Source of the DNA: a virus
Lineage: Duplodnaviria > Heunggongvirae > Uroviricota > Caudoviricetes
IMG/VR virus record: IMGVR_UViG_2522572023_000001
Length of the DNA: 43,429 nt
Strand: one strand, 5' to 3'
The position numbers are program-made. Below are positions 6,001 to 9,000 of the stretch, piece after piece (position 1 is the first letter of the stretch; every line of letters starts with the position of its first letter).

Positions 6001-9000
6001 CATTCGGTAACGCAGATCGGATGATTACGGTCCTTGCGGTAAATCCGGCATGTACAGGATTCATTGTCCTGCTCAAAGTCCATGCCATCAAACTGCTGGT
6101 TTTCATTGATGATGCGGGACCAGCCATCAACGCCCACCACCGGAACGATGCCGTTCTGCTTATCAGGGAAGGCGTAAATTTCTTTCGTCCACGGATTAAG
6201 GCCGTACTGGTTGGCGACGATCAACAATGCGATGAACTGCGCATCGCTGGCATCGCCTTTAAATGCCGTCTGGCGAAGAGTGGTGATCAGTTCCTGTGGG
6301 TCGACAGAATCCATGCCGACACGTTCAGCCAGCTTCCCTGCCAGCGTTGCGAGTGCTGTACTCATCCGTTTTATACCTCTGAATCAATATCAACCTGATG
6401 GTGAGCAATGGTTTCAACCATGTACCGGATGTGTTCTGCCATGCGCTCCTGAAACTCAACATCGTCATCAAACGCACGGGTAATGGCTTTTTTGCTGGCC
6501 CCGTGGCGTTGCAAATGACCGATGCATAGCGATTCAAACAGGTGTGGGGCAGGCCTTTTTCCATGTCGTCTGCCAGTTCTGCCTCTTTCTCTTCACGGGC
6601 TATCTGCTGGTAGTGACGCGCCCAGCTCTGAGCCTCAAGACGATCCTGAATGTAATAAGCGTTCATGGCCGAACTCCTGAAATAGCTGTGAAAATATCGC
6701 CCGCGAAATGCCGGGCTGATTAGGAAAACAGGAAAGGGGGTTAGTGAATGCTTTTGCTTGATCTCAGTTTCAGTATTAATATCCATTTTTTATAAGCGTC
6801 GACGGCCTCACGAAACATCTTTTCATCGCCAATAAAAGTGGCGATAGTGAATTTAGTCTGGATAGCCATAATTGTTTGATCCATTTTTTGGGACTCCTGG
6901 CTGATTAAGTATGTCGATAAGGCGTTTCCATCCGTCACGTAATTTACGGGTGATTCGTTCAAGTAAAGATTCGGAAGGGCAGCCAGCAACAGGCCACCCT
7001 GCAATGGCATATTGCATGGTGTGCTCCTTATTTATACATAACGAAAAACGCCTCGAGTGAAGCGTAATTGGTATGCGGTAACGCCGCGCTCAGGCGGCCT
7101 TGATAGTCATATCATCTGAATCAAATATTTCTGATGTATCGATATCGGTAATTCTTATTCCTTCACTACCATCCATTGGAGGCCATCCTTCCTGACCATT
7201 TCCATCATTCCAGTCGAACTCACACACAACACCATATGCATTTAAGTCGCTTGAAATTGCTATAAGCAGAGCATGTTGCGCCAGCATGATTAATACAGCA
7301 TTTAATACAGAGCCGTGTTTATTGAGTCGGTATTCAGAGTCTGACCAGAAATTATTAATCTGGTGAAGTTTTTCCTCTGTCATTACGTCATGGTCGATTT
7401 CAATTTCTATTGATGCTTTCCAGTCGTAATCAATGATGTATTTTTTGATGTTTGACATCTGTTCATATCCTCACAGATAAAAAATCGCCCTCATCTTGGA
7501 GGGCAAAGAAGATTTCCAATAATCAGAACAAGTCGGCTCCTGTTTAGTTACGAGCGACATTGCTCCGTGTATTCACTCGTTGGAATGAATACACAGCGCT
7601 GTGTTTATTCTGTTGTTTGCGTGAAAATGAAATCCGCCTGAGCGGGTTATGACCACTTTTTGTTTGGGTTTCGTTGGTGAGCGTGGTTTACAGGATTATT
7701 TGATATACCCCATAACTCTGACTCGCTTATCTCTACACGAGAGAAAGACCTGCTTTCTTTCAGTTCTTTTATAAACCTAGAACCTAAGATGACATCTATT
7801 GTACCAGAAAGTTCTTGTAAAAGATCTTTGTTTTTTCTGAGGAAGAAAATATCTTCTTTATATTTAATTTTTACATAGAATTTATTCTGTATTTTTAATA
7901 TATCAAAGCATGGCAGATATCTATATCCCTCATATTTTCGCCACTGCTTAACAATTATAACATCTTTTTCATTTACTGCATTAATCAGCCCAAGACCAAG
8001 TACAGGTATGAATATTCTATTGTCTGCCGAAAGCGTACAATTATCACCACCAGGCAAATATGTATAAATCATGTCGGAATTTTTATACGCATCAACGAAT
8101 GCACGTAAGAAGCGTACATATTTTTGCCATCCGTTTATACCGAATTTACCATATAAGTATTCTTTATTTGTTAGAAGAAAACTATTTGTATCAGGATCCT
8201 TATCTACAGACCTGTCGATAAGATCTCCAACTACGTTTACAAAGTCAAAGACAGAGTTTAATAAGAACAATTGTCTTTCAGTAGGGCGAATTTCAATTAT
8301 GTAGCCAGGATGAAGACGATATTGCATCTGCTTACGAAGTATACCGAACGCTTGGGTCCGAGCATCTGAAAGCAACTTCTTGTCGCCATCGCCGTGAGCA
8401 TTGTTTCTAATAAAACTGATATAATTTGCTAATTTTTCAGCCTCTTTTTTGTGTTTTTTTCGCTCTGATGCTGAGTCTATTGGTTTTGGTATGGACTTGT
8501 AATCAATCTTCTTCATTACGTACCTCATGCCAATGGAATGGATTCCCCTTTAACCTTTTGTCTTCCTTGACAAGTTATACCGAACTCACCTGGCTTGCTA
8601 TACCAAACTCGATGATTCTTGCGCTCAATACGTTGCAGGTTGCTTTCAATCTGTTCGTGGTATTCAGCCAGCACCGTAAGGTCTATCGGATTCAGTGCGC
8701 TTTCTACTCGTGATTTCGGTTTGCGATTCAGCGAGAGAATAGGGCGGTTAACTGGTTTAGCGCTTACCCCAACCAACAGGGGATTTGCTGCTTTCCATTG
8801 AGCCTGTTTCTCTGCGCGACGTTCGCGGCGGCGTGTTTGTGCATCCATCTGGATTCTCCTGTCAGTTAGCTTTGGTTGTGTGTGGGAGTCGTAGTCCTGA
8901 ACGAAAACACCCCGCAATGGCACATTGGCAGCTAATCCGGATTCGCACTTCCGGCCAATGCTTCGTTTCGTATCACACACACCAAAGCCTTCTGCTTTGA

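Follow-up and report, generated by a model that had tools for sequence, protein, structure and literature searches.

Nun of phage HK022 has so far been regarded as a singular case, a small, peptide-like factor that owes its specificity to an arginine-rich motif reading boxB RNA. In the arrested elongation complex only residues 87-109 of Nun are ordered, and these hold all known arrest determinants: R102 pairs with the C-terminal carboxylate, K106, K107 and W108 are located between the hybrid and the downstream duplex, and H93 and R94 contact the upstream duplex DNA; N103 is dispensable, and Nun gains entry through a gap that separates the upstream duplex from the beta' zipper (PMC5386594). We have analyzed a gene that ends in most of this peptide and otherwise differs from nun. 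It lies immediately downstream of the antiterminator gene N in IMG/VR virus record IMGVR_UViG_2522572023_000001 (Caudoviricetes), a stretch of 43,429 nucleotides referred to here as the window, whose positions 7400-8700 are 100% identical to phage 434 (OL657226/OL657227). The last 14 residues of its 289-amino-acid (aa) product (VNHAHQRNPNKKWS) are identical to HK022 Nun 96-109, and the gene product is probably a new kind of transcription-arrest exclusion factor.

Two other groups of described systems bear on the locus. In ISDra2 TnpB the WED domain (residues 1-12 and 117-176) and the REC domain (13-116) form a recognition lobe, whose cleft binds the transposon-associated motif (TAM) duplex, and RuvC follows from residue 185. 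TldRs are TnpB derivatives that still possess a guide RNA and an inactive RuvC lobe and repress transcription as roadblocks. The 434 protein would resemble them in being TnpB-derived and exapted for transcription control without DNA cutting, but it has no nuclease lobe, no guide locus is seen, and it would act via a peptide inserted in polymerase. In lambda, as the first-pass annotation of the window pointed out, the slot between N and ea10 in the pL operon carries ral and sieB, accessory genes with conflict-related functions like that proposed here; there is no sequence or fold relationship between their products and the 434 protein, which has no PHROG, Pfam or NCBIfam match to the ral or sieB families. 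We classify the 434 protein as a Nun-type arrest factor with a new targeting module, because it has neither the arginine-rich motif nor the size of Nun and lacks the RuvC and TNB domains, the guide locus and the Pfam matches of TnpB. The features of the gene and of its product, the latter partly from an AlphaFold2 (AF2) model with per-residue confidence given as pLDDT, are the following.

7647..8516, minus strand: coding sequence, 289 aa plus stop (CPT_434_48 / UMO75312.1), from the open reading frame (ORF) list, GenBank annotation, PHROG 12139 and homologue starts
8322..8489, minus strand: N-terminal helical hairpin, residues ~10-65 (helices 16-38 and 43-65), AF2, pLDDT 85-97
7827..8321, minus strand: core body, residues ~66-230, predicted TnpB/Cas12-type recognition-lobe fold
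7743..7823, minus strand: C-terminal helix, residues 232-258, from AF2 secondary structure and the family alignment
7692..7742, minus strand: disordered linker, residues 259-275 (SFSRVEISESELWGISNNP), AF2; the linker start is conserved family-wide
7650..7691, minus strand: Nun arrest peptide, residues 276-289 (VNHAHQRNPNKKWS), corresponding to HK022 Nun 96-109, from PHROG 5632, PDB 6ALG chain N and the Nun translation

The last 20 residues match PHROG 5632, 'Nun-like transcription termination factor' (E=7e-5), and the sole significant match of the protein to PDB sequences is Nun (P18683) in the arrested elongation complex, 6ALG chain N. These matches are confined to the last 20-27 residues. 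As in Nun, the peptide stands at the extreme C-terminus and is disordered; it has equivalents of N97, H98, H100, R102, K106, K107, W108 and the C-terminal S109, and all residues that contact polymerase, RNA or DNA are present except H93 and R94. In the AF2 model the tail is predicted disordered (pLDDT <50 for residues 260-282), as expected for a peptide that becomes ordered only inside the polymerase. Upstream of Nun residue 96 there is no similarity, and residues 87-95 of Nun are not conserved. The first-pass annotation had found no motif in the protein and described the gene as unknown. The Nun tail overturns the first statement, and the second does not stand either, since the identical gene of phage 434 is named 'Nun C-terminal peptide-containing protein' in GenBank. 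The 434 genome announcement does not discuss the gene, and our literature searches turned up no paper that deals with its function, the TnpB-like body or two matters taken up below, the relatives embedded in BREX operons and the GGLPSLGKRR tail.

Homologues that were retrieved by similarity of the body, and not of the tail, keep the peptide: P0003 (68% identity), P0033 (48%), P0005 (47%), P0004 (42%), P0006 (36%) and the fragment P0007 all retain V-N-H-A-H-x-R-x-x-x-K-K-W(S), with variation at positions 101, 103, 104 and 105 only. DNA homology to nun of the HK022-type phage O276 starts exactly at the V96 codon (window 7692) and runs at 95-97% identity through the stop codon and the terminator tL2a into ea10; the 14 codons in common show 3 differences, all synonymous. 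Such an abrupt boundary, continuing into shared downstream DNA, would fit a non-functional mosaic that acquired the last codons of nun through a recombination junction inside that gene, a reading that we consider extremely improbable. The homologues with 36-48% body identity are too diverged in DNA to descend from one junction and yet keep the tail, and it was on this conservation among divergent homologues that a recombination scar was rejected. Purifying selection, a confident predicted fold and a presence in 83 complete E. coli genomes also speak against it. Relative to a 97.7% identical allele the gene has 10 synonymous differences and 10 non-synonymous ones, most of the latter conservative (dN/dS ~0.26); in the tail codons all changes are synonymous. 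Full-length copies are present in 83 of 5,426 complete E. coli genomes, all of them chromosomal and all annotated 'hypothetical protein', and residues 5-293 of the longer reading of the ORF give a full-length match to the uncharacterised family PHROG 12139 (E=1.6e-205). By these comparisons the gene is genuine and under purifying selection.

A back-translated pattern of the tail, scanned against IMG/VR, gave 121 motif matches and 62 distinct ORFs. Apart from L090, an internal match due to chance, all of these ORFs end in the peptide. Three groups can be told apart: classic Nun proteins (109-117 aa), many small proteins of 79-123 aa with other arginine-rich N-termini, including the lambda N-like 'MDAQARRREKRK', and the ~290-aa 434 type. 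Tail conservation in this set is circular, being forced by the pattern, and was not used as evidence; the diversity of the bodies is not circular, and judged by it the arrest peptide is a portable module. The small Nun-like proteins, some of which have a lambda N-like motif (MDAQARRREKRKEKQEEWK) fused to the Nun tail, suggest an arrest-factor family retargeted to different nut/boxB types. ORFs of 88 aa of this kind occur in L036, L039, L050, L051 and L091, and further small ones in L010, L052 and L056; L029 has two neighbouring tail-bearing ORFs (3257-3292 and 3556-3591, both on the minus strand).

Two rearrangements were seen among tail-bearing loci. P0008, a 96-aa E. coli protein, is a chimera of the first 23 residues of Bet and the last 73 residues of the 434 protein, Nun tail included, which implies what appears to be a rearranged prophage remnant still ending in the arrest peptide. 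In O276 (L002) a copy of IS903 lies between nun and ea10 (3246-4169) and is flanked on both sides by the 9-bp TCATTCCAA (3105-3113 and ~4171-4179 of the reverse complement); with IS903 removed, the nun-ea10 interval is collinear with the 434 sequence.

The structure prediction that the first-pass annotation had proposed for the protein gave, apart from the disordered tail, a folded body that resembles a TnpB recognition lobe (pLDDT 82, pTM 0.72). The core runs in the order WED strand b1 (71-77), REC helices (80-145) and WED beta-barrel with one flanking helix (152-219), so that, as in ISDra2 TnpB (PDB 8H1J), Cas12n (9UDI) and Cas12f, a WED OB-barrel with an inserted helical REC is predicted. 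The protein stops ~60 residues past the barrel, after one helix and the disordered tail; no RuvC or TNB domain follows the core. Unlike TnpB and Cas12, the 434 protein thus has no nuclease lobe (RuvC D-E-D, TNB zinc ribbon) and carries a polymerase-arrest peptide where RuvC would begin, and its locus, in which the gene abuts N, has neither transposon ends nor an omega-RNA-like locus. An hhalign comparison of the family profile with a profile of the TnpB N-terminal half (70 sequences; the bait was verified as identical to 8H1J/8BF8) gave P=0.003, better than 20 of 20 column-shuffled controls. The match is collinear, query 68-225 aligning with TnpB 3-179, and stops before RuvC. At the level of the predicted fold we regard it as established that the body is a free-standing TnpB-type recognition lobe ending where the nuclease lobe would start; at the sequence level the link to TnpB is only suggestive.

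The 434 protein has 289 aa and a confidently folded body, whereas Nun has 109 aa and is largely unstructured, and in place of an arginine-rich boxB-binding motif, which it lacks, targeting would fall to the predicted TnpB-like domain. At the N-terminus stands a helical hairpin rich in Lys, which homologues do not keep as an arginine-rich motif. This hairpin is specific to the Nun-tailed subfamily and is absent or disordered in relatives with another tail. The C-terminal helix runs into a segment found family-wide, S-[FY]-[SA]-R-V-[DE]-[IF]. The family is tiny (4 clusters among 5.8 billion proteins); an exhaustive profile search added ~20 more distant relatives, which match residues ~73-225 only. 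Neither the 434 protein nor any of 24 relatives has a Pfam match, PF12323, PF01385 and PF07282 included, or an NCBIfam or PADLOC match. Rfam recognises no RNA family in the gene or next to it, and a guide-like RNA was discarded because the flanking DNA is common to phages without the gene.

The first-pass annotation had read the surroundings of the gene in the window correctly: N borders it on one side, and on the other lie ea10, cIII, kil, gam, bet and exo. The alignment to lambda, whose slot holds ral and sieB, covers only the N and ea10 flanks, so that lambda has no counterpart of the ORF. The features flanking the gene, and the longer reading of it, are the following.

8525..8848, minus strand: antiterminator gene N, lambda-type, 107 aa, immediately upstream (GenBank annotation)
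8523..8526, minus strand: Shine-Dalgarno GAGG, overlapping the N stop TGA (8527-8525), read from the sequence; the ribosome-binding site is annotated in OL657226
7647..8528, minus strand: 293-aa ORF from the alternative upstream ATG at 8528
7477..7506, minus strand: intrinsic terminator tL2a, 3' of the gene (terminator scan and annotation), in DNA shared with HK022/O276 3' of nun, 95-97% identical to O276
9005..9083, minus strand: nutL boxB hairpin (9005-9021), pL start (9070) and pL -10 (9078-9083), annotated in OL657226 and carried over with an offset of +3399

An uninterrupted ORF of 293 codons was found at 7647..8528 on the minus strand, as first described. It is AT-rich (GC 0.30-0.35, against ~0.5 for the recombination genes bet, exo and gam). 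The 4-nt coupling to the N stop that had been claimed does exist as an ATGA overlap (ATG 8528-8526, TGA 8527-8525), but the ORF has a better start at 8516. Read directly from the sequence, the upstream ATG has no Shine-Dalgarno; a GAGG sits 6 nt 5' of the Met5 ATG (8516-8514), the GenBank coding sequence begins at that same ATG, and homologues align from the Met5 equivalent. The Met5 ATG is therefore the better start and the protein one of 289 aa, and the ATG of the overlap is probably not the start in use.

A consensus scan found no sigma-70-like minus-strand site between 8516 and 9000, and pL was the sole promoter detected that could drive the gene. The expression from pL that had been proposed for the gene fits this layout. 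The gene lies directly 3' of an N-type antiterminator gene in 434, L005, L096, L123 and L079, and the arginine-rich motifs of these N proteins vary between lineages. Nun, in contrast, stands in place of N. Since the gene coexists in 434 with lambda-type N and nut sites, its product cannot simply target lambda nut. Two further phages, L003 and L071, have no N; there the gene follows a cI-like repressor and a leader bearing HK022 putL (95% identity across its full 63 nt), and putR (98% identity) is located across the immunity region from it. The positions are as follows.

L003, 2942-3004 / 1757-1701: putL / putR
L071, 5952-6014 / 4768-4712: putL / putR

In these phages the gene occupies the slot of nun in HK022, the first gene after pL-putL; nun and the 434 gene also share the DNA that extends from the V96 codon past tL2a to ea10. 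The immunity repressor of the put phages is a different one, and their early-left genes are P22-like (Y8K6, DUF551, Arf, AAA_24). These comparisons show what looks like mosaic spread of the put system along with the 290-aa gene. As far as the sequences indicate, the gene is always paired with a system modifying the phage's own elongation complexes, either N or put, and from this pairing we infer that those complexes would be immune.

Two other roles would also be compatible with parts of this arrangement. The first is a shut-off of host transcription in lytic growth, in which high expression from pL arrests unmodified host complexes and the body adds affinity or stability and not specificity. 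Nun is toxic on over-expression, and the arrest that it imposes on host polymerase is non-specific, with a Kd of ~300 nM for a non-specific complex (PMC5386594). The gene belongs to the early lytic operon, no promoter of its own was detected, and it is strictly linked to N or put, whose modifications are expected to shield phage complexes. We nevertheless judge this role unlikely: a conserved nucleic-acid-recognition fold of 165 residues exceeds the needs of a non-specific inhibitor, relatives of the body stand in defence islands, loss of the R94 equivalent should reduce untargeted affinity, and in HK022-type phages the slot holds an exclusion gene. The second is regulation of the phage's own early transcription, by arrest at particular 434-type DNA sites that would time the shut-down of the pL operon or affect the lysis-lysogeny decision. 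Co-transcription with N, retention beside divergent N types and an intrinsic terminator 3' of the gene in both 434 and L003 agree with it. Lambda, 21 and many other lambdoid phages do without the gene, however, the slot is a known moron or accessory position, and occurrence with two unrelated antitermination systems argues against a circuit-tuned role, which makes this explanation quite improbable.

The distant relatives of the body share the core and the S-[FY]-[SA]-R-V-[DE]-[IF] segment but end in ...G-x-x-V-x-GGLPSLGKRR and not in the Nun peptide. For two of them, P0031 and P0032, PADLOC confirms a BrxA-BrxB-BrxC-[gene]-PglX arrangement; in the BREX loci brxC and pglX flank the gene with gaps of only 23 and 34 nt. 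Another, P0028, stands beside DISARM-like PLD/MZB/helicase genes. For P0010, P0012, P0021 and P0025 the contigs recovered were just 1-2 kb in length. The body family is thus associated with defence loci by its gene neighbourhoods. PADLOC has no model for the BREX-embedded relatives or for the 434 protein. The relatives in these defence loci, those between brxC and pglX being of 276-288 aa with a GGLPSLGK[GH]R tail, are located as follows.

L213/L214, 8001-8831, plus strand
L216, 8001-8867, plus strand
L217, 4390-5256, plus strand
L215, 2153-2992, plus strand

Behind pglX the BREX loci have two genes of unknown function, an HSP70-like one and a further PglX-like one. A relative with other surroundings was seen beside NYN/OST-HTH, RelA_SpoT and DISARM-like PLD/MZB/helicase genes.

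The position between brxC and pglX raises the alternative that the 434 protein is an anti-defence factor, a decoy or dominant-negative homologue of the BREX-embedded protein, and the slot counterpart ral, an anti-restriction gene, would make it an analogue of Ral. It is only the distant, other-tailed relatives that are embedded in BREX and not the 434 protein itself; they are ~17-26% identical to it, and a decoy role would leave the strict conservation of the arrest peptide unexplained. We rate this alternative as very improbable, marginally more so than a role in early regulation.

The second tail is not confined to this family. A genome scan found 83 ORFs ending in a GGLPSLGKRR-type tail, where ~2 would be expected naively (a figure that GC-rich genomes would raise). 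Their consensus is ...S[VI][RW]TVSGGLP[ST]LGKRR-COOH, carried on unrelated bodies in many phyla, and by this distribution the GGLPSLGKRR ending is portable too. Pfam, PADLOC and the literature give no identity for it, and the neighbourhoods of the small proteins that carry it, inspected by eye, were uninformative. Among the bodies are the TnpB-like one, a single Mrr-type nuclease and small CxxC zinc-ribbon proteins, and the sources are Streptomyces, Acidobacteriota, Proteobacteria, Bacteroides, Chloroflexi and Candidate Phyla Radiation (CPR) bacteria. The matches on genome contigs are L130-L212, among them members of the 434-body family at L192:6041-6917 (plus strand) and in L144.

Taken as a whole chain, we think it slightly better than an even chance that the 434 protein arrests translocation in the manner of Nun, with a TnpB-like targeting lobe in place of the arginine-rich motif that reads boxB. 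The gene would be transcribed from pL, directly after N. Because the tail is identical in sequence to the peptide in the solved complex, the last 14 residues would, like Nun 96-109, thread into the active-site cleft of E. coli RNA polymerase in the elongation complex. The ~165-residue WED+REC-like domain, given its likeness in fold to the TnpB lobe that grips the TAM DNA duplex and the guide-target heteroduplex, would target some nucleic-acid feature of the victim's transcription complex in place of the boxB-reading peptide. Since the Nun tail enters beside the upstream DNA duplex, the most economical model would place the body on the upstream duplex or on nascent RNA just behind the polymerase, the linker of ~17 residues positioning the lobe near the upstream duplex and the RNA exit. 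Given the pairing with N or put, the phage's own early complexes, N-modified in 434-type and put-modified in HK022-type phages, would be spared, and the targets would be superinfecting phages, other elements or unmodified host complexes. The first-pass annotation had proposed a single-gene exclusion or abortive-infection function. Exclusion is the part that finds indirect support, in the Nun peptide, the nun slot and the relatives in defence islands; nothing specific supports abortive infection, and the evidence points to transcription arrest as the favoured mechanism of the two.

Several observations weigh against this mechanism. Each functional step is inferred from sequence, fold and context. 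At the positions of Nun H93 and R94 the 434 protein has N273 and N274, and position 95 is Pro; in Nun the main effect of R94A is a strong weakening of binding (PMC5386594), and the equivalent of R94 is absent here. Without this contact, arrest may rely more heavily on the body for recruitment. The relationship to TnpB rests on predicted structures: the hhalign probability for TnpB is <10%, a weak sequence signal, the family hidden Markov model recovered no TnpB from PDB sequences, no Pfam or PADLOC model covers the family (24 relatives scanned), and no guide-like RNA locus is evident at the gene from Rfam or from the flanking DNA, which is shared with phages lacking the gene. The difference from HK022 extends to the dedicated promoter of nun: no lysogen promoter for the 434 gene was detected by the consensus scan, and the HK022 nun promoter region could not be aligned in the put-type loci, where the leaders diverge right after putL. 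Prophage-mediated exclusion of the classical kind, which would need expression of the gene in the lysogen, is therefore only a possible role.

The two portable tails allow a wider and more tentative proposal, which we think less likely than the arrest mechanism itself. A nuclease-free TnpB-type recognition lobe may read nucleic acid and bring to its target a C-terminal 'warhead' peptide that can be exchanged: in lambdoid phages the Nun peptide against polymerase, and in BREX and other defence islands the widespread ...SVRTVSGGLP[ST]LGKRR-COOH against another conserved machine.

Elsewhere in the early region, an IS3-family element (11280-12493, plus strand) splits the lambda-type replication gene O, of which a remnant lies at 10999-~11250; P is at 12592-13293. 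The element encodes OrfA (108 aa) and OrfB (296 aa), with a -1 frameshift site and an ALIL pseudoknot (Rfam RF01497, 11561-11677). Most of O, which in phage 434 carries the ori iterons, appears to be absent from the window. Because of this interruption and apparent loss, the window is probably a replication-defective 434-like prophage distinct from phage 434 itself. The ORF 3' of the 434 repressor gene is hex, the repressor-protection gene (9201-9677, minus strand). Its longest ORF (158 aa) overlaps cI (9602-10234); the GenBank coding sequence is shorter (134 aa, window 9200-9604), and its note states that a wrong start codon was inferred in a published study.

A founding model phage of molecular biology thus carries the arrest peptide on what is predicted to be a quite different, folded targeting domain, and a domain resembling the recognition half of TnpB/Cas12 is seen again, joined to another portable tail, within BREX operons. 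Should this be confirmed, the 434 protein would represent a new way to direct polymerase arrest at chosen templates and a new exaptation of the TnpB lineage, and its relatives could offer a handle on the unexplained mechanism of BREX. If the proposal of interchangeable warheads were true as well, these proteins would make up a new class of conflict effectors that lack a nuclease and were exapted from the RNA-guided nucleases of transposons, and what directs polymerase arrest in 434 would be a motif in DNA or RNA, or conceivably a guide, and not boxB.

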